A stretch of DNA of 64,000 nucleotides from NCBI RefSeq assembly GCF_003991155.1, contig NZ_CP031293.1; one strand, written 5' to 3'. Origin of the DNA: Escherichia coli (lineage in GTDB: Bacteria; Pseudomonadota; Gammaproteobacteria; Enterobacterales; Enterobacteriaceae). Of this stretch, positions 12,201 to 29,275 are shown in pieces (position 1 is the stretch's first letter; every line of letters starts with the position of its first letter). Under the pieces are notes generated by a model. It ran no database searches. It was not told the origin of the DNA and saw nothing but the letters and a program-made list of their open reading frames with translations. A program made the position numbers and the translations under genes.

Positions 12201-15137
<2,937 letters not shown>

Positions 15138-15148
15138 GAGCGGCGGTT

Positions 15149-16039
15149 ATGATGTTTAAGCAATACCTGCAAGTAACGAAACCAGGCATCATCTTTGGCA
15201 ACCTGATCTCGGTGATTGGGGGATTCCTGTTGGCCTCAAAGGGCAGCATTGATTATCCCCTGTTTATCTACACGCTGGTTGGGGTGTCACTGGTTGTGGC
15301 GTCGGGTTGTGTGTTTAACAACTACATCGACAGGGATATCGACAGAAAGATGGAAAGGACGAAGAATCGGGTGCTGGTTAAAGGCCTGATCTCTCCTGCT
15401 GTCTCGCTGGTGTACGCCACCTTGCTAGGCTTTGCTGGCTTTATGCTGCTGTGGTTTGGCGCGAATCCGCTGGCCTGCTGGCTGGGGGTGATGGGCTTTG
15501 TGGTTTATGTCGGCGTTTATAGCCTGTACATGAAACGTCATTCTGTCTACGGCACATTGATTGGTTCGCTCTCCGGCGCTGCGCCTCCGGTGATCGGTTA
15601 CTGTGCGGTAACCGGCGAGTTCGATAGCGGCGCAGCGATCCTGCTGGCTATCTTCAGCCTGTGGCAGATGCCTCACTCCTATGCCATCGCCATTTTCCGC
15701 TTTAAGGATTACCAGGCGGCAAACATTCCGGTATTGCCAGTGGTAAAAGGCATTTCGGTGGCGAAGAATCACATCACGCTGTATATCATCGCCTTTGCCG
15801 TTGCCACGCTGATGCTCTCTCTTGGCGGCTACGCTGGGTATAAATATCTGGTGGTCGCCGCTGCGGTGAGCGTCTGGTGGTTAGGCATGGCTCTGCGCGG
15901 CTATAAAGTTGCTGATGATCGAATCTGGGCGCGCAAGCTGTTCGGCTTTTCTATCATCGCCATCACTGCCCTCTCGGTAATGATGTCCGTTGATTTTATG
16001 GTGCCGGACTCGCATACGCTGCTGGCTGCTGTGTGGTAA
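15149..16039 (+). CDS. cyoE: Heme O synthase (protoheme IX farnesyltransferase)
   Basis: ORF 15104..16039; recognised N-terminus [29 protein letters not shown] begins at 15149. Confidence 0.9.
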
Positions 16040-16054
16040 CACAACCTCTCTATA

Positions 16055-16080
16055 AAAAAGGTGCTACGGCACCTTTTTTA
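16055..16080 (+). terminator. Intrinsic terminator of the cyo operon
   Basis: aaaaaaggtgctacggcacctttttt: perfect 6-bp stem (aggtgc/gcacct), 4-nt loop, A-tract before and T-tract after, 16 nt beyond the cyoE stop. Confidence 0.8.
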
Positions 16081-16092
16081 TTGTCTGAGATC

Positions 16093-16168
16093 AGAGATAC
16101 GGCTAATAACCGTATCTCTTGACAGAGTGAGCATATGCACATAAATTAATCACACGGTTGATAGCCGT
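16093..16168 (+). promoter_or_regulatory. Two related palindromes (ATACGG-N7-CCGTAT type) upstream of the antitoxin gene; candidate operator sites
   Basis: Perfect inverted repeat agagatacgg-ctaataa-ccgtatctct at 16093-16119, and a weaker copy acgg-ttgatag-ccgt at 16154-16168, both within about 130 bp upstream of the ATG at 16224. Confidence 0.4.
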
Positions 16169-16223
16169 ATTATGCATGAGATCGACTCCCTACGATTTCA
16201 TTCAGTTAATCAAAGAGGTCATA

Positions 16224-16535
16224 ATGCCTGGAAAAACAGTCGCTCTACCCGATATCGATAAAACGCTGAAAAATGCGCGGGTTGAACTCAAAACCAGTCC
16301 CGACGCCAAAAACAAACTTCGTGAAGCTGCGCAAGCCGTTGGGGTAGATTTAAGCGCTTTTATTTTGAGCGCAGCTATGGAACGCGCCGAAAGTGTGCTT
16401 GATAACCAACGTCGCCGTGAGCTTTCGAATCAAAGCTGGGAACTGATGAACCAACTCATCGCTGAACCTGCTCAACCGACGCTCGCCCTCAAGGCGTTAA
16501 TGAAAAGGAAAAACAGCGATGGTCGACAAGCATGA
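16224..16535 (+). CDS. DUF1778-family type II antitoxin (TacA/AtaR-like), partner of the downstream GNAT toxin
   Basis: ORF-track frame 16158..16535; I place the start at ATG 16224, preceded by RBS aaagaggt, giving MPGKTVALPDIDKTLKNARVELKTSPDAKNKLREAAQAVGVDLSAFILSAAMERAESVL. Size (about 103 aa) and overlap with the GNAT toxin fit the DUF1778 antitoxin family. Confidence 0.7.
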   Translation: MPGKTVALPDIDKTLKNARVELKTSPDAKNKLREAAQAVGVDLSAFILSAAMERAESVLDNQRRRELSNQSWELMNQLIAEPAQPTLALKALMKRKNSDGRQA

Positions 16536-17061
16536 AGAGATTACTCTGCCCATAGTCCTCTCCTGTAATTATCAGTCTGATATTATTTATCCTGGGCAAA
16601 AACAGTTTGATTGCGGTAACCCTGTTATCGATAAATTTGTACGCGCATCGCTAAAGAAAAGTGTGCGTAATAGCGACTGTGCTGCTAAAGCTCTTATTGA
16701 CAGACAAAGTGGTGAACTGATTGGCATCTGTACTTTTACGGCATATTCGCTGGAAAAACAACGCGTTTCTGGCGTCCTTCAGGGTTCACAACCTTCAGAG
16801 ATTGGTGTTGTCAGATTAGTCATGTTAGGGGTAGCGCGGAAATATCAAAAGCGGGGCTTTGGTCAGGACCTACTATGTAATTTTTTTGAACATGTAAAAA
16901 TAATTCACCGGGCATTACCAATTAAAGGGGTTTATCTTGATGCTGACCCTGCCGCCATTAACTTTTATACTCGCCTCGGCTTTGTTCAGCTTTCAGCGAG
17001 GCCCAATGTTTTCGGTGCTGTACCGATGTTTTTAGCGATTCAGCATATTCTCGCGGCTTAG
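16519..17061 (+). CDS. GNAT-family acetyltransferase toxin (TacT/AtaT/ItaT-like; predicted aminoacyl-tRNA acetyltransferase)
   Basis: 180 aa, ATG at 16519 overlapping the antitoxin 3' end by 17 nt; FDCG motif near the N-terminus and GNAT acetyl-CoA motif QKRGFGQDLL. Confidence 0.7.
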   Translation: MVDKHEEITLPIVLSCNYQSDIIYPGQKQFDCGNPVIDKFVRASLKKSVRNSDCAAKALIDRQSGELIGICTFTAYSLEKQRVSGVLQGSQPSEIGVVRLVMLGVARKYQKRGFGQDLLCNFFEHVKIIHRALPIKGVYLDADPAAINFYTRLGFVQLSARPNVFGAVPMFLAIQHILAA

Positions 17062-17116
17062 ATTATTATCGCCTCCGGCCAGGGCTAGTTTTGCCTCAGC
17101 CGGGGACTGAGCAGCG

Positions 17117-17398
17117 TTACCACTTTTGTTCAATTGCCCCCGCTTTCAGCAACTCCACATCCTTGCCGTTAATGGTTGCCGTTGCGGCAACGATTGTGGT
17201 CCTTACAGTTGCACAAGATTTTCGCTCAAATTCCGGTTTATAAAGAATTAGAGACGAATTACTGGTAAATGAATCAAATATGTAATCAGTAAAGCTAATA
17301 TTCAGCCGGTTTAAACCGAAAGGCGCGAAGCCAACCGTTTGGTTAATCTCCTTACCGGATGGGCTACGAATGCTGAATGTCACGCGAAGATTGGCCAC
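17117..17398 (-). CDS. Hypothetical small protein (93 aa), immediately downstream of the Sel1-repeat gene
   Basis: ORF MANLRVTFSIRSPSGKEINQTVGF...TVRTTIVAATATINGKDVELLKAGAIEQKW; no recognisable family; may be a gene fragment. Confidence 0.3.
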   Translation of the reverse strand: MANLRVTFSIRSPSGKEINQTVGFAPFGLNRLNISFTDYIFDSFTSNSSLILYKPEFERKSCATVRTTIVAATATINGKDVELLKAGAIEQKW

Positions 17399-17403
17399 TT
17401 CGC

Positions 17404-17961
17404 CTAATTTATTGGTGGTCCGGAAGACTTTCTGTCAATCATGTCTTTTCGACATGTAGCCAGAAAGTCTTCCGGACCACCATAAATGTGGACACCTTTA
17501 TCAAGATATTCCTTCGCTTTCTTACAATCTACCTCAACATACTGACCATTGGCGTACATCATGCCCAACCTGGACCATGCTAAATTCACACCGTATTGCG
17601 CGGCCTGATTAAATAGTGCATACGCTTTGGCATAATCCACCCGCACCAGCTCACCGTCGTAGTAGATACTCCCCAGCGCTAACGGAGCTTCTCTATCACC
17701 GTGTTTAACGGCTAACTCAAACCATTTAATCGCTTCCTGAACATCAGGTTTGGTATCAAAGCGAGGCTGATAATATTCCCAGCCTAACAGGCTCTGCGCG
17801 TCGACATCTCCCAATTCAGCCATTTTATGCAGTCTATTTATAACATCGGGCGCAGGTTGACCACCGTATATGCTGTCATACAATTCATGCGCTTTCTCGC
17901 TTGCCACCACGCATGGTGAAACTATTAGCATTAAAGAAAATAATATTCTTTTAGTTAACAT
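17404..17961 (-). CDS. Secreted Sel1-like repeat (TPR-like) protein
   Basis: ORF 17404..18021; probable start at the ATG at 17961 giving signal peptide MLTKRILFSLMLIVSPCVVA, followed by Sel1-type repeats (AQSLLGWEYYQ..., ALGSIYYDGELVRVDYAKAYALFNQAAQYG, AWSRLGMMYANGQYVEVDCKKAKEYLDKG). Confidence 0.65.
   Translation of the reverse strand: MLTKRILFSLMLIVSPCVVASEKAHELYDSIYGGQPAPDVINRLHKMAELGDVDAQSLLGWEYYQPRFDTKPDVQEAIKWFELAVKHGDREAPLALGSIYYDGELVRVDYAKAYALFNQAAQYGVNLAWSRLGMMYANGQYVEVDCKKAKEYLDKGVHIYGGPEDFLATCRKDMIDRKSSGPPIN
17415..17481. repeat. Nested perfect palindrome (21-bp inverted repeat around an inner 6-bp hairpin)
   Basis: ggtggtccggaagactttctg (17415-17435) and cagaaagtcttccggaccacc (17461-17481) are exact reverse complements; the 25-nt spacer contains catgtc-ttttc-gacatg. 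Confidence 0.85.
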
Positions 17962-18367
17962 GTATACCTTTATGTTCTCTCTGTCATATATTTCCATAAT
18001 AATTAACCACCAAACATCCATTTAATGAATAAATACAGTGCCATAAAGGCCCAAGTAATAAGCACACATTTAACCTGAAACATTATCATCGATGTCACCA
18101 AATCGTTTATTTAGTGAGATAAAAATAGCATGTTCGCAAGATAAAAAATGCACATAGCAATCAAGAAATAATATTATTACTTTTGATGTAAAACTATTTA
18201 GCTTTAAGAATAATTTTTTCAACATATAGAGCATTCATTTTATGAATGCAAAATAAACATGCCTGACACACAAACTATTCTCCTCTGTAATATTTTCTCA
18301 TTAACACTCTGTTTACCCAACATGCGCTCCGCACTACACTATGTGGGCATTTTTTTAAGAGGTGGTA

Positions 18368-19732
18368 ATGAACGATTATAAAATGACGCCAGGTGAGCGG
18401 CGCGCGACCTGGGGTTTAGGCACCGTTTTCTCGTTGCGCATGCTGGGCATGTTCATGGTTCTGCCGGTTCTGACCACGTACGGCATGGCTCTGCAAGGTG
18501 CCAGCGAAGCATTAATCGGTATTGCCATTGGTATTTATGGTCTGACTCAGGCCGTTTTTCAGATTCCGTTTGGCCTGCTTTCAGACCGCATTGGTCGCAA
18601 ACCATTAATTGTCGGTGGGCTGGCGGTGTTTGCCGCCGGTAGCGTTATTGCTGCGCTCTCCGACTCCATCTGGGGAATTATTCTGGGCCGGGCGTTACAA
18701 GGTTCTGGAGCGATTGCCGCTGCCGTTATGGCACTACTTTCTGATCTCACGCGCGAACAAAACCGCACCAAAGCGATGGCGTTTATCGGCGTGAGCTTTG
18801 GCATTACCTTTGCCATTGCGATGGTGCTTGGCCCGATCATCACTCACAAACTTGGACTGCACGCGCTGTTCTGGATGATCGCTATTCTGGCAACAACCGG
18901 CATTGCGTTGACCATTTGGGTTGTGCCCAACAGTAGCACTCACGTACTTAATCGTGAGTCCGGAATGGTGAAAGGCAGTTTCAGTAAAGTGCTGGCGGAA
19001 CCGCGGTTGCTGAAACTCAACTTTGGCATTATGTGTCTACACATGCTTCTGATGTCTACGTTTGTTGCCCTGCCCGGACAGCTGGCTGATGCGGGGTTCC
19101 CGGCGGCTGAACACTGGAAGGTCTATCTGGCGACGATGCTAATCGCCTTTGGCTCGGTCGTGCCTTTCATTATCTACGCTGAAGTTAAGCGCAAAATGAA
19201 GCAAGTCTTTGTCTTCTGCGTCGGATTGATCGTGGTTGCGGAAATTGTGTTGTGGAACGCACAAACGCAGTTCTGGCAACTGGTGGTCGGCGTGCAGCTT
19301 TTCTTTGTAGCGTTTAATTTGATGGAAGCCCTTCTGCCTTCACTTATCAGTAAAGAGTCGCCTGCAGGTTACAAAGGTACGGCGATGGGTGTTTACTCCA
19401 CCAGCCAGTTTCTTGGCGTGGCGATTGGCGGTTCGCTGGGCGGCTGGATTGACGGCATGTTTGACGGTCAGGGCGTATTTCTCGCTGGCGCAATGCTGGC
19501 CGCAGTGTGGCTGGCAGTCGCCAGTACCATGAAAGAACCGCCGTATGTCAGCAGCTTGCGCATTGAAATCCCGGCGGACATTGCCGCAAACGAAGCGTTA
19601 AAAGTACGTTTGCTGGAAACTGAAGGCGTCAAAGAAGTGTTGATTGCAGAAGAAGAACATTCAGCGTATGTGAAAATCGACAGCAAAGTGACGAATCGCT
19701 TTGAGGTTGAACAGGCAATTCGCCAGGCATAA
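18368..19732 (+). CDS. yajR: MFS transporter YajR
   Basis: ORF begins at GTG 18362; recognised N-terminus MNDYKMTPGERRATWGLGTVFSLRMLG starts at ATG 18368; 12-TM MFS protein with C-terminal soluble domain. Confidence 0.9.
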   Translation: MNDYKMTPGERRATWGLGTVFSLRMLGMFMVLPVLTTYGMALQGASEALIGIAIGIYGLTQAVFQIPFGLLSDRIGRKPLIVGGLAVFAAGSVIAALSDSIWGIILGRALQGSGAIAAAVMALLSDLTREQNRTKAMAFIGVSFGITFAIAMVLGPIITHKLGLHALFWMIAILATTGIALTIWVVPNSSTHVLNRESGMVKGSFSKVLAEPRLLKLNFGIMCLHMLLMSTFVALPGQLADAGFPAAEHWKVYLATMLIAFGSVVPFIIYAEVKRKMKQVFVFCVGLIVVAEIVLWNAQTQFWQLVVGVQLFFVAFNLMEALLPSLISKESPAGYKGTAMGVYSTSQFLGVAIGGSLGGWIDGMFDGQGVFLAGAMLAAVWLAVASTMKEPPYVSSLRIEIPADIAANEALKVRLLETEGVKEVLIAEEEHSAYVKIDSKVTNRFEVEQAIRQA

Positions 19733-19764
19733 AAGCGAGGCGAAATTGCCTGCTGCGCTACGCT

Positions 19765-19850
19765 TACCAGGCCTACAAAGTTCCTGAGTTACAAACCTTT
19801 GTAGGCCGAATCAGGCGTTCATGCCGCATCTGACATGAACAAAACGCACA
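19765..19850. repeat. REP/BIME-type extragenic palindromes between the convergent yajR and yajQ
   Basis: gcctacaaag...ctttgtaggc palindrome and a gccgaatcaggcgttcatgccgcatctgaca REP-like unit. Confidence 0.6.
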
Positions 19851-19859
19851 TTGTCGCGA

Positions 19860-20351
19860 TTAATCGCGGAAGTTTTTGAACTGGAACGGCTGACCGAGAT
19901 CGCCACCACGTACCATCGCCATGACAGCCTGCAAATCATCACGAGATTTACCCGTTACGCGGATCTCATCGCCCTGAATTTGCGCCTGCACTTTCAGTTT
20001 GCTGTCTTTGATCATTTTGACGATTTTCTTCTGAGTCGCGCTTTCAATGCCCTGTTTCAGTTTCGCTTCCACAAACCAGGTTTTACCGCTATGAACGATA
20101 TTTTCCGGTACATCCAGTGAACTGCCTTCAATGCCGCGCTTCAGCAACTTGGCACGCAGAATATCCAGCAACTGATTGACCTGGAAGTCGGACTCGCTCA
20201 ACACTTTGATAGTTTTGCTGGCGTCATTCAGCTCAAATGAGGCTTCAACGTTACGGAAGTCAAAACGGGACTCCACTTCGCGGCTCGCGTTATCGACCGC
20301 GTTACGTGCTTCCTGAAGATCAACTTCAGAGACAATATCGAAAGATGGCAT
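19860..20351 (-). CDS. yajQ: Nucleotide-binding protein YajQ (UPF0234)
   Basis: ORF 19860..20519; recognised protein [42 protein letters not shown] begins at 20351. Confidence 0.9.
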
Positions 20352-20429
20352 CTTTTCCTCTCCCTTCATTTTTGATGCGAAGCATAATACCTGCAAAGTT
20401 AAATAACCAACAGTCCTGCACCAGGACGT

Positions 20430-20475
20430 ATCCCTTAATTGTGCATAGTCGCAACAGCATGCACAATTAAGGGAT
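20430..20475. promoter_or_regulatory. 17-bp perfect inverted repeat in the divergent yajQ/panE promoter region
   Basis: atcccttaattgtgcat (20430-20446) - 12-nt spacer - atgcacaattaagggat (20459-20475), exact reverse complements. Confidence 0.5.
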
Positions 20476-20518
20476 AGCCTTATTGAACACCCGGAGTGGT
20501 TGCGGGTGAGGAGGAACA

Positions 20519-21983
<1,465 letters not shown>

Positions 21984-22036
21984 TGTCGGATGCGGTAAAC
22001 GTCGCATCCGACCAGATGCGACGTTACAACCACATA

Positions 22037-23485
22037 TTACGGGCGATACACCTTCACATTGTTAAAGCCCTGCTCGCGCAGATAGAGCGCCTGCAGGCGG
22101 CTCATCACCCCGCGCTCACACCACAACAGCCAGGTTTTGCTCTGGTCGAGATCGCCAAATTTGGTGCTCAGTTTATAGAACGGCAGAGAAACCACATCAA
22201 TCCCTTCGACTTTCAGTGGCTTATCTTCCTGTTCATCGATAGAACGGATATCGAGGATCACGTCGTTCGGGCCGAAGCCATTGACGGTTTCCACTTCCAC
22301 CACTTCCTGCTCGGTCTGCTGGGCGATTTCGCGGATATCAACGTTATTCGCTTCCTCAACCACTTTATCGAGAATGCTGAAGTCAAACTTCTCTTCTTCC
22401 GCTTCAATCTTCGATTTAACCGCTTTCACCGTCGGGCTTTTGGAAATCACGCCGCAATATTCCGGCATCGTGCGGGCAAAGTCTTCGGTGCCAATCTGGC
22501 GAGCCAGGTTGATGATGTGCTCTTTGTCGTAAGAGATCAGCGGACGCAGGATCAGCGTGTCGGAGACGTTATCAATCAGGCGCAGGTTGGTCAGCGTCTG
22601 GCTGGACACCTGGCCGAGCGCTTCACCGGTAACCAGCGCCTGAACGCCGTAACGTTCTGCCACTTTGGACGCGGCACGCACCATCATACGTTTGAGGATA
22701 ACGCCCATCTGACCGTCGTCGATTTTCTCGAGAATTTCCCCGACGACCGGTTCGAAATTAATAGCGACAAAACGCACGCGGTGGGAGCTGCCAAAGCGGT
22801 TCCACAGATAATGCGCTACCTGACGCACGCCAATTTCATGCGCCGCGCCGCCAAGGTTAAAGAAGCAGTAATGCACACGACATCCGCGACGCATCAACAT
22901 ATAACTGGAAACGCCGGAGTCGAAACCACCAGAAATGAGCGACAGCACATCTTCCTGGGTACCAATCGGGAAACCGCCAATACCTTCGTAGCGGCCTTTA
23001 ATCAGCAGAAGACGATCGTCTTCCACTTCCAGATGGACAGTCACATCCGGATTGGTCAACTTCACGCGCGCGGATTCAATATGCTGATTTAAACCGCCGC
23101 CGACGTAACGCTCCACATCAATCGAGCTAAAATCATGTTTGCCACGGCGCTTCACGCGCACGCAGAAGGTTTTGCCTTCCAGCTGATCGCGATACTGAAC
23201 CAACGCTTTCTCGAAAATATCGTGCATGTCGGTAAACGGCACGTCTTCGACTTCGAGAATATGGTGGATACCCGGAATACGGGTCAGGGCGTCGCGAATA
23301 GCCAGACGCTGGTTTTCATCTTTTGCGCGAACTTCGATGTTATCCCAGTGGCGGACGACAGCGAGCGTCTCATCATAGTGCTTTAAAACGTTACGAATGT
23401 TCCCGGTAAGGATTTTTATAAAGCGCAAGCGCACAGATTGGCTTTTGATGGTGATTTCCGGGAACAATTTAATGATAAACTTCAT
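22037..23485 (-). CDS. thiI: tRNA 4-thiouridine synthase / thiamine biosynthesis protein ThiI
   Basis: 482 aa [33 protein letters not shown]... with PP-loop SGGFDS and C-terminal rhodanese-like domain. Confidence 0.95.
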
Positions 23486-23690
23486 GGCGGCAATGGTTCG
23501 TTGGCAAGCCTTAAGCGACTTGTATAGGGAAAAATACAGCAGCCCACACCTGCGGCTGCATCCAGGCGCGGAAGTATACCACTAACATCGCTTTGCTGCG
23601 CACATCACCTTACCATTGCGCGTTATTTGCTATTTGCCCTGAGTCCGTTACCATGACGGGGCGAAAAATATTGAGAGTCAGACATTCATT

Positions 23691-23933
23691 ATGCCGAAGA
23701 AAAATGAGGCGCCCGCCAGCTTTGAAAAGGCGCTGAGCGAGCTGGAACAGATTGTAACCCGTCTGGAAAGTGGCGACCTGCCGCTGGAAGAGGCGCTGAA
23801 CGAGTTCGAACGCGGCGTGCAGCTGGCACGTCAGGGGCAGGCCAAATTACAACAAGCCGAACAGCGCGTACAAATTCTGCTGTCTGACAACGAAGACGCC
23901 TCTCTAACCCCTTTTACACCGGACAATGAGTAA
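23691..23933 (+). CDS. xseB: Exodeoxyribonuclease VII small subunit
   Basis: 80 aa [64 protein letters not shown]. Confidence 0.95.
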
Positions 23934-24832
23934 TGGACTTTCCGCAGCAACTCGAAGCCTGCGTTAAGCAGGCCAACCAGGCGCTGAGCCGTTTTATCGC
24001 CCCACTGCCCTTTCAGAACACTCCCGTGGTCGAAACCATGCAGTATGGCGCATTATTAGGTGGTAAGCGCCTGCGACCTTTCCTGGTTTATGCCACCGGT
24101 CATATGTTCGGCGTTAGCACAAACACGCTGGACGCACCCGCTGCCGCCGTTGAGTGTATCCACGCTTACTCATTAATTCATGATGATTTACCGGCGATGG
24201 ATGATGACGATCTGCGTCGCGGTTTGCCGACCTGCCATGTGAAGTTTGGCGAAGCGAACGCGATTCTCGCTGGCGATGCTTTACAAACGCTGGCGTTCTC
24301 GATTTTAAGCGATGCTGATATGCCGGAAGTGTCGGATCGCGACAGAATTTCGATGATTTCTGAACTGGCGAGCGCCAGCGGTATTGCCGGAATGTGCGGT
24401 GGTCAGGCATTAGATTTAGACGCGGAAGGCAAACACGTACCTCTGGAGGCGCTTGAGCGTATTCATCGTCATAAAACCGGCGCATTGATTCGCGCCGCCG
24501 TTCGCCTTGGTGCATTAAGCGCCGGAGATAAAGGACGTCGTGCTCTGCCAGTACTCGACAAGTACGCAGAGAGCATCGGCCTTGCCTTCCAGGTTCAGGA
24601 TGACATCCTGGATGTGGTGGGAGATACTGCAACGTTGGGAAAACGCCAGGGTGCCGACCAGCAACTTGGTAAAAGTACCTACCCTGCACTTCTGGGTCTT
24701 GAGCAAGCCCGGAAGAAAGCCCGGGATCTGATCGACGATGCCCGTCAGTCGCTGAAACAACTGGCTGAACAGTCACTCGATACCTCGGCACTGGAAGCGC
24801 TAGCGGACTACATCATCCAGCGTAATAAATAA
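23933..24832 (+). CDS. ispA: Farnesyl diphosphate synthase
   Basis: 299 aa; start overlaps xseB stop; prenyltransferase Asp-rich motifs (LIHDDLPAMDDDDLRRG, FQVQDDILD). Confidence 0.95.
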   Translation: MDFPQQLEACVKQANQALSRFIAPLPFQNTPVVETMQYGALLGGKRLRPFLVYATGHMFGVSTNTLDAPAAAVECIHAYSLIHDDLPAMDDDDLRRGLPTCHVKFGEANAILAGDALQTLAFSILSDADMPEVSDRDRISMISELASASGIAGMCGGQALDLDAEGKHVPLEALERIHRHKTGALIRAAVRLGALSAGDKGRRALPVLDKYAESIGLAFQVQDDILDVVGDTATLGKRQGADQQLGKSTYPALLGLEQARKKARDLIDDARQSLKQLAEQSLDTSALEALADYIIQRNK

Positions 24833-28320: not shown

Positions 28321-29275
28321 ATCCTTTCCAGTCTAACGTGACAGGTTCGCCGTCACGAATAAAACAAAGCCCTTCGATATCGGCGGTCATTTGCCCGATA
28401 CAGGTAAACGGTACGCCCAGGTGTCCGAGAGCCACATCCAGCGCGCCACGGTTCAGTTCCGGCACAGTGAAACACAACTCGTAATCTTCACCGCCAGAGA
28501 GCGCCCAGCGCAACGCCTGTTCAGGTTCAACATGGCGAGAAAGCGCATCAGAAAACGGCAGCAATGCCAGGTCAATACGTGCGCCGCAGTCGCTGGCTTT
28601 CACGATATGCCCGAGATCGGAAATCAGACCGTCAGAGAGATCGATAGCTGAATTTGCCAGATCGCGCAGTGCCTGCCCCTGTAAAATACGCGGCGATGGA
28701 CGGAGATGACGTTTGATCAAGTAGTCCGCATCTTTAGCATCGGCAACCTGCAAACGGTTTTGCAAAATCGCCAGCCCGGCGGCGCTATCGCCCGGTGTAC
28801 CGGTCACATAGATCCAGTCACCCGGTTTCGCCCCAGCGCGCGTTAAGGCTCGTCCCATCGGAACAAAGCCGTGGATACCCAGCGTCATTGATAATGGCCC
28901 ACGCGTGGTATCGCCGCCAATGAGTTGCATATCGTAATAATTGAGAAGATCAAACAAACTGTCGCTGAAGGACTCAAGCCACGCTTCGTCGACGTCCGGT
29001 AAGGTTAATGCCAGCGTCAGCCAGGCTGGATCGGCCCCCATCGCTGCCAGATCGCTTAGGTTCACCGCCAGTGCTTTATACGCCAGATCAGCAGGATCGA
29101 TATCAGGGAGGAAGTGGTTGCCCGCCACCAGCGTATCAGTGCTGATCGCCAGGGTCTGCTTCTCGGGGATATTGAGAAGTGCGCAATCGTCGCCGATGCC
29201 CAGTTCGACATCAAGACGAGAACTTCTTACACGGTCAAAATAACGGGCAATCAGGGAGAACTCGCCACATGCCAT
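28298..29275 (-). CDS. thiL: Thiamine-monophosphate kinase
   Basis: 325 aa [55 protein letters not shown]. Confidence 0.95.

Follow-up and report, generated by a model that had tools for sequence, protein, structure and literature searches.

The sequence examined here, referred to as the window, is a stretch of 64,000 nt from an Escherichia coli chromosome (contig NZ_CP031293.1), in which cyoABCDE is followed by a three-gene island and then by yajR-yajQ-panE. The island lies between cyoE and yajR, at positions 16040-18360, and was present in 1,373 of the 5,426 complete E. coli genomes searched. Its genes, together with the features described below, are listed in Table 1. In most genomes carrying the island, the region is approximately 92 bp longer than in the window, and the third gene, which encodes a Sel1-repeat protein, is an intact 936-nt open reading frame (ORF) of 311 aa. 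Genomes lacking the island matched over only approximately 40 nt at the cyoE end, and one copy of the island was reported on a plasmid record. In the RefSeq annotation of an identical strain, an "RNA-guided endonuclease InsQ/TnpB family protein" (IS200/IS605-type) is also annotated within the flank spanning positions 18100-40000.

Table 1. Features of the island and of the Sel1-repeat gene, with positions relative to the window
Feature	Position	Strand	Description
DUF1778/TacA-type antitoxin	16224-16535	+	Island gene
GNAT (TacT-like) acetyltransferase	16519-17061	+	Island gene
Sel1/TPR gene	17117-17961	-	Island gene; pseudogene in the window
5' fragment of the Sel1/TPR pseudogene	17404-17961	-	RefSeq start; 185-aa product predicted
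Out-of-frame 3' remnant of the Sel1 gene	17117-17398	-	93-aa ORF; residues 219-311 of the intact 311-aa protein
TGGTGGT	17413-17419		Ancestral; outer end of the left arm; 7-nt microhomology with ACCACCA (17476-17482); one switch point
CCGGAAGAC	17420-17428		The sole 9 new nt; the ancestor has 100 nt here (gene nt 534-633, codons 178-211)
TTTCTG	17429-17434		Ancestral; inner end of the left arm; 6-nt microhomology with CAGAAA (17461-17466); other switch point
Spacer, 26 nt	17435-17460		Ancestral coding sequence; holds CATGTC (17440-17445) and GACATG (17451-17456)
Right arm, CAGAAAGTCTTCCGGACCACCA	17461-17482		Ancestral coding sequence (encodes ...GGPEDFL...); template of the copied 9 nt

In strain 2016C-3878, whose sequence is 100% identical to the window, RefSeq annotates the Sel1 gene as "tetratricopeptide repeat protein, frameshifted" (17117-17961, minus strand). 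The original prediction had treated the Sel1 ORF as intact; the ORF represents only the front of this frameshifted pseudogene. A net loss of 91 nt has shifted the reading frame; the predicted 185-aa product has a signal-peptide-like N terminus and three Sel1 repeats, is native up to K178, and then ends with SSGPPIN and a stop codon. Downstream, the ORF at 17117-17398 agrees with the protein of the nearest intact allele, that of strain CM2, from residue 219 onwards and corresponds to a domain conserved in orthologs. The consequence predicted from these reading frames is the loss of the last 133 residues of a putative secreted Sel1-repeat protein. Searches of this protein identified Sel1 repeats alone in Pfam and nothing at or above the cut-off in NCBIfam. 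Mechanical ORF calling placed the start at ATG 18021 (205 aa), compared with ATG 17961 in RefSeq; the latter start gives the signal-peptide-like N terminus MLTKRILFSLMLIVSPCVVA, and an upstream start is used by some database entries (P0001, 323 aa).

An inverted-repeat search of the window identified, at the 3' end of the truncated ORF, a left arm TGGTGGTCCGGAAGACTTTCTG (17413-17434) and a right arm CAGAAAGTCTTCCGGACCACCA (17461-17482), each of 22 nt, with 100% complementarity to one another and separated by 26 nt. The whole structure is 70 nt (17413-17482), and within the spacer is an inner 6-bp hairpin, catgtc (17440-17445)-ttttc-gacatg (17451-17456). The original prediction had recognized both the large exact inverted repeat and the inner hairpin; its figures (21-nt arms, a 25-nt spacer, and a start at 17415) were off by one and made the structure slightly too small, with the perfect complementarity upheld. 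It had also judged such a structure unlikely by chance, with which the present numbers agree. Allowing up to three mismatches, the arm sequence was found only at its two sites in the window and gave no matches in 100 shuffles, and by our own estimate approximately 4e-7 perfect 22-nt inverted repeats with a spacer of at most 100 nt are expected per 64 kb of random sequence. The palindrome is a nonchance structure. Folding of the region as RNA from the minus strand gave -55.7 kcal/mol (z = -10.2), and folding as DNA gave -35.3 kcal/mol for the minus strand and -32.8 kcal/mol for the plus strand.

The palindrome does overlap the last 25 codons of the ORF at 17404-18021 (minus strand), as had been proposed. 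Of the C-terminal tail GGPEDFLATCRKDMIDRKSSGPPIN, the first 18 residues, GGPEDFLATCRKDMIDRK, are native and conserved (residues 161-178); novelty is confined to the seven residues SSGPPIN and the stop codon. Among the database matches were further shortened versions of the Sel1 protein (P0012, P0014, and P0015), including a 193-aa "partial" form from Shigella sonnei with a foreign N terminus (377 member sequences) and a 177-aa form starting at an internal Met. As none of these has the SSGPPIN tail, the Sel1 gene seems to decay independently in other lineages.

To resolve how the palindrome arose, the window was compared with the allele of strain CM2 over 931 nt (17100-18030). The two sequences differ by one single-nucleotide polymorphism (SNP) at 17708 and by one complex change, in which 100 nt of the ancestral gene (GGCGAAGAGG...CAACCGTT; gene nt 534-633, codons 178-211) are replaced by the 9 nt CCGGAAGAC. 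These 9 nt (17420-17428) are the exact reverse complement, at nine of nine positions, of GTCTTCCGG (17467-17475). Within 4 kb of the CM2 allele, GTCTTCCGG occurs once, in the right arm, and the forward 9-mer CCGGAAGAC is absent. On its left, the replaced block is flanked by TGGTGGT, which closes the prefix common to CM2 and the window, occurs in every intact allele, and can pair with ACCACCA at the right arm's outer end. On the right it is flanked by TTTCTG, which can pair with CAGAAA at the inner end of the right arm and opens the common suffix. Both microhomologies, of 7 and 6 nt, already exist in the intact CM2 allele. The ancestor therefore held a 6-nt and a 7-nt match, separate from one another and with 100 extra nt on one side, where the window holds 22 matches of 22. 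Simulation of a single template switch on the CM2 allele reproduced positions 17100-18030 of the window base for base, with the exception of the SNP at 17708.

Taken together, the palindrome is very probably the scar of one template-switch (quasipalindrome-type) mutation inside the Sel1-repeat gene, and this event inactivated the gene in one E. coli lineage. The one-step origin is inferred on grounds of parsimony. An alignment program can draw the same difference as a retained GAAGA, a 91-nt gap, and four substitutions, and it could then be read as a plain 91-nt deletion joined by several independent point mutations through which the repeat became perfect by accident. This would call for at least four substitutions within 9 nt, all toward complementarity, compared with one SNP in the remaining 931 nt, and complementarity at nine of nine positions has a chance probability of 3.8e-6. 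When all 91-nt deletions around the junction were modelled, the best still left four clustered mismatches, and direct repeats are absent at the putative ends. Intermediate alleles, carrying the deletion without the substitutions or the reverse, were not found among 1,368 matching genomes. A series of unrelated steps is thus extremely improbable.

Two further bases within the palindrome were considered as possible products of the event, and both were rejected. The T at 17455, which completes GACATG (17451-17456), is already present in the intact CM2 and SMS-3-5 alleles, and the A at 17476 is already present in intact CM2. The spacer is identical in the intact CM2 and SMS-3-5 alleles, while B-type alleles have GACAAG, leaving the inner hairpin imperfect there. 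The right arm is identical in intact CM2; position 17476 is A in intact CM2 and in all genomes carrying the palindrome and G in the SMS-3-5 and B-type alleles. The A lengthens the return microhomology TGGTGG/CCACCA from 6 to 7 nt and may thereby have made the CM2-type allele more prone to the switch.

Inside the Sel1 gene, CM2 and SMS-3-5 differ from the window by one to two SNPs in 931 nt. Over positions 14380-20515 they differ at 69 to 70 positions, mostly in dense SNP clusters at 15427-15979, 18649-18856, and 19792-20472, within cyoE, yajR, and yajQ. Dense clusters surrounding a near-identical gene mark the locus as a recombination mosaic, and CM2 can consequently be called the nearest intact allele only for the Sel1 gene itself.

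The comparison of alleles also bears on the origin of the palindrome as an insertion. One reading of the original prediction was an inserted miniature palindromic element, and a size of approximately 70 nt with perfect terminal inverted repeats does give the structure a superficial likeness to mobile elements of the palindromic or miniature inverted-repeat kind (MITE-, REP-, or ERIC-like), here placed at the gene's 3' end. In every intact allele, however, the stretch formed by the right arm and the spacer, inner hairpin included, is plain coding sequence; of the 70 nt of the palindrome, 61 are ancestral coding sequence and only 9 are new. With both right arm and spacer already in place, the intact ("empty") allele exceeds that of the window by 91 nt, such that the net change is a loss of 91 nt, and a target site duplication is absent. 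A search for further copies, as had been suggested, returned a single locus: no second copy was found in the window, in the 5,426 E. coli genomes, in 100,044 species-representative genomes (GTDB), or in viral contigs (IMG/VR), and the 22-nt arm had no exact match in the latter two collections. An inserted mobile element is accordingly scarcely conceivable.

To establish which form of the gene is ancestral, Sel1 orthologs were compared, the check which had been proposed for this locus and which proved decisive. An intact 311-aa Sel1-repeat gene was found at the same locus in approximately 1,300 E. coli genomes, and outgroup species also carry an intact form. The missing 34 codons and the C-terminal domain are kept in full-length orthologs from E. 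albertii and the cryptic Escherichia clades, and likewise in more distant full-length orthologs, namely, 308-aa proteins with 56 to 60% identity and an Affinibrenneria homolog with 36% identity. Because full-length orthologs keep this segment, the intact form is ancestral and the palindrome is derived, and the original suggestion that the 3' end of the Sel1 gene had been altered is confirmed.

The 50-nt junction was identified in 49 of the 5,426 complete E. coli genomes, with 100% identity, once in each genome, on the chromosome, and always in this gene. Genomes were then ordered by their similarity to the window over a 22-kb flank from which the palindrome was excluded. All 41 of the closest genomes (approximately 100% identity) carry the junction, and the next closest, at 99.5% and including SMS-3-5 and CM2, are intact. 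Eight carriers fall outside this 41-genome cluster, among them CP172336, CP196255, CM142671, and CM195848. The other four of the eight were examined and share the local haplotype of the window, including 17708A, differing from it mainly in a SNP-dense tract beyond 21084. An independent recurrence of the mutation was considered for these carriers and is disfavored by this shared haplotype in the four examined; a single origin followed by flanking recombination would fit better. A second sublineage of carriers (TCM3e1, 20, 980-2, and Z226-1) has 49 to 50 SNPs in 24 kb relative to the window, nearly all of them within 21084-24448 (panE to thiI) and 28577-29195 (the yajO/pgpA region), and these two tracts look like imported recombination segments. 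The carriers form one clonal cluster, whose documented members belong to ST457; three have been typed as such, MRY15-117, MRY15-131, and CREC-544 (PMC5430464; PMC9860340). No intact intermediate or sister allele was found within the carrier cluster, so the event carries no date and two-step routes are still conceivable.

The original prediction had also offered a strong RNA hairpin or attenuator, and a protein-binding or recombination site, as possible explanations. An evolved cis-regulatory RNA or DNA structure (an attenuator, terminator, mRNA stabilizer, or protein-binding site) would be in keeping with the great stability of the hairpin (-55.7 kcal/mol; z = -10), with its end lying 6 nt ahead of the new stop codon, and with its invariance in 49 of 49 carriers. 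As the hairpin is the derived state of one recent clonal cluster, its invariance among carriers is uninformative, and it sits inside a gene destroyed by the same event. A test for an intrinsic terminator found AAUAAAUUAGG after the stem on the minus strand and TAAATGTGG after it on the plus strand; neither provides a U tract, and the hairpin was not called in a terminator scan. In Rfam 15 (E-value mode) no family reached its threshold, the best match being MIR5229 with 44.2 bits against a gathering score of 80; these matches to plant microRNA (miRNA) precursors reflect generic similarity among long hairpins. Nothing pointed to a protein-binding or recombination site. The hairpin is probably without an evolved function, and a regulatory origin is highly unlikely. 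A separate terminator-like hairpin at 17384-17403 (plus strand, antisense to the Sel1 gene), GCGAAGATTGGCCACTTCGC followed by CTAATTTATT, directly abuts the palindrome; the sequence there is ancestral coding sequence, and the match has probably arisen by chance.

The mechanism proposed for the template switch is as follows. In the ancestor, 100 nt separated TGGTGGT from TTTCTG, and the downstream coding sequence contained CAGAAA-GTCTTCCGG-ACCACCA. At one short inverted match, the growing strand would have come off its template and made a reverse-complement copy of GTCTTCCGG, either from its own new strand folded back or from the strand across the fork; at the second such match it would have rejoined the original template, skipping 100 nt. 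A perfect inverted repeat with 22-nt arms would in this way have grown out of inverted matches of 6 and 7 nt, leaving the gene 91 nt shorter and out of frame, with a truncated 185-aa product and an orphaned C-terminal domain.

The strand involved can be suggested from the composition of the window. GC skew on the plus strand was negative in seven of eight bins, which suggests that the fork crosses the window from right to left, with the minus strand as the nascent leading strand. Such a skew fits the location of cyo on the right replichore of the K-12 map. In the fold-back version of the template switch, the nascent minus strand would copy the right arm, the spacer, and CAGAAA, and its 3' end would snap onto its own TTTCTG. 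Modelling of the nascent minus strand as a 54-mer paired the 3' CAGAAA with TTTCTG at -10.1 kcal/mol as DNA (z = -4.2), making this first switch plausible. The strand would then be extended through GTCTTCCGG-ACCACCA and reannealed to TGGTGGT 100 nt further along the template. With the minus strand leading, a fold-back event would be placed on the leading strand. A strand bias of quasipalindrome mutations has been reported in several studies, and in one screen most mutagens affected the leading-strand reporter (PMC7202029). A switch between strands would yield the same product as the fold-back, and from sequence the two would be indistinguishable.

Template switching of this type was proposed by Ripley and later studied in E. 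coli (PMC7202029), and it is established both in E. coli and by comparative genomics (PMC7202029; PMC5941160). In the quasipalindrome mechanism, a stalled polymerase takes as its template either the nascent strand or the one across the fork, and an imperfect inverted repeat becomes perfect (PMC7202029; PMC5941160). The event at the Sel1 gene would by this account have taken place during replication. The same product could also have been made by repair synthesis after a break (microhomology-mediated fold-back priming, MMBIR-like) rather than at an ordinary fork, as switching at 6- to 7-nt microhomologies and a 100-nt skip are also typical of repair-associated template switching, and the four-point template-switch model assumes no cause or mechanism (PMC5453318). 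No feature of the sequence favors repair synthesis, and in E. coli the documented cases of quasipalindrome switching are mainly strand-biased replication events (PMC7202029), leaving the repair route rather unlikely.

The palindrome adds one more case to a well-known type of mutation and does not represent a new element. With the structure settled as the mutational scar of a pseudogene, it is not to be pursued as a mobile or regulatory feature. Its value is modest, and lies in providing a fully polarized natural template switch in E. coli for which the ancestral allele, outgroups, microhomologies, and lineage distribution are known. It illustrates how a long perfect hairpin may arise in one step, here a 22-bp repeat from matches of 6 to 7 nt with 100 nt skipped, and how template switches take on the appearance of a "deletion plus clustered SNPs" in alignments. 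The junction also serves as a simple sequence marker of the carrier cluster. ST457, to which the documented members belong, is a multidrug-resistant lineage of humans, livestock, and wildlife.

A wider significance is improbable. It would require that the hairpin born of the template switch, or the truncated 185-aa predicted secreted Sel1 protein, had been co-opted or positively selected in ST457, or that the site is a recurrent hotspot in CM2-type alleles. Co-option might, for example, have turned the hairpin into a 3' stabilizer for the shortened mRNA, or losing the C-terminal domain might have been adaptive. A hotspot could be attributed to the G-to-A change at 17476 of the CM2 type, which lengthened the return microhomology from 6 to 7 nt.

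Among known systems, the quasipalindrome template switch (Klaric et al. 2020; PMC7202029) is similar in that an imperfect repeat is perfected by brief copying of the complementary arm followed by a return, the new bases match the other arm exactly in reverse complement, and a frameshift results. The events recorded in quasipalindrome reporters and hotspots change 1 to 4 nt within an existing, closely spaced repeat of approximately 18 bp. In the Sel1 gene, by contrast, the arm grew to 22 nt from prior matches of only 6 and 7 nt, with 9 nt templated and 100 nt skipped; the result is a natural allele fixed in a lineage, whereas the reporter events are laboratory revertants. In the notation of the four-point model (Loytynoja and Goldman 2017; PMC5453318), the event would be 3-2-1-4 on the minus strand and 1-4-3-2 on the plus strand, the type that creates inverted repeats and appears in ordinary alignments as a mutation cluster with an indel. 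That model was derived from human and chimpanzee genomes, in which points 1 and 4 mostly lie a short gap apart; here, an unusually long 100 nt lies between them, and the event fell in bacterial coding sequence and knocked out a gene.

RNA hairpins born of template switches (Monttinen and Loytynoja, PMC8794818; de novo miRNA hairpins, PMC10710096) share with the Sel1 palindrome the origin of a long perfect stem in one event. The subthreshold Rfam matches to miRNA precursors are consistent with this likeness. Unlike the template-switch-born miRNA hairpins, the Sel1 hairpin has no sign of co-option, and to our knowledge the miRNA pathway is absent from bacteria. REP/BIME, ERIC/IRU, and MITE sequences resemble it as palindromic units of approximately 70 nt that are capable of forming hairpins. 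These elements are multicopy, mostly intergenic, and inserted, whereas the Sel1 palindrome is single copy, lies within a gene, and was made from the gene's own sequence.
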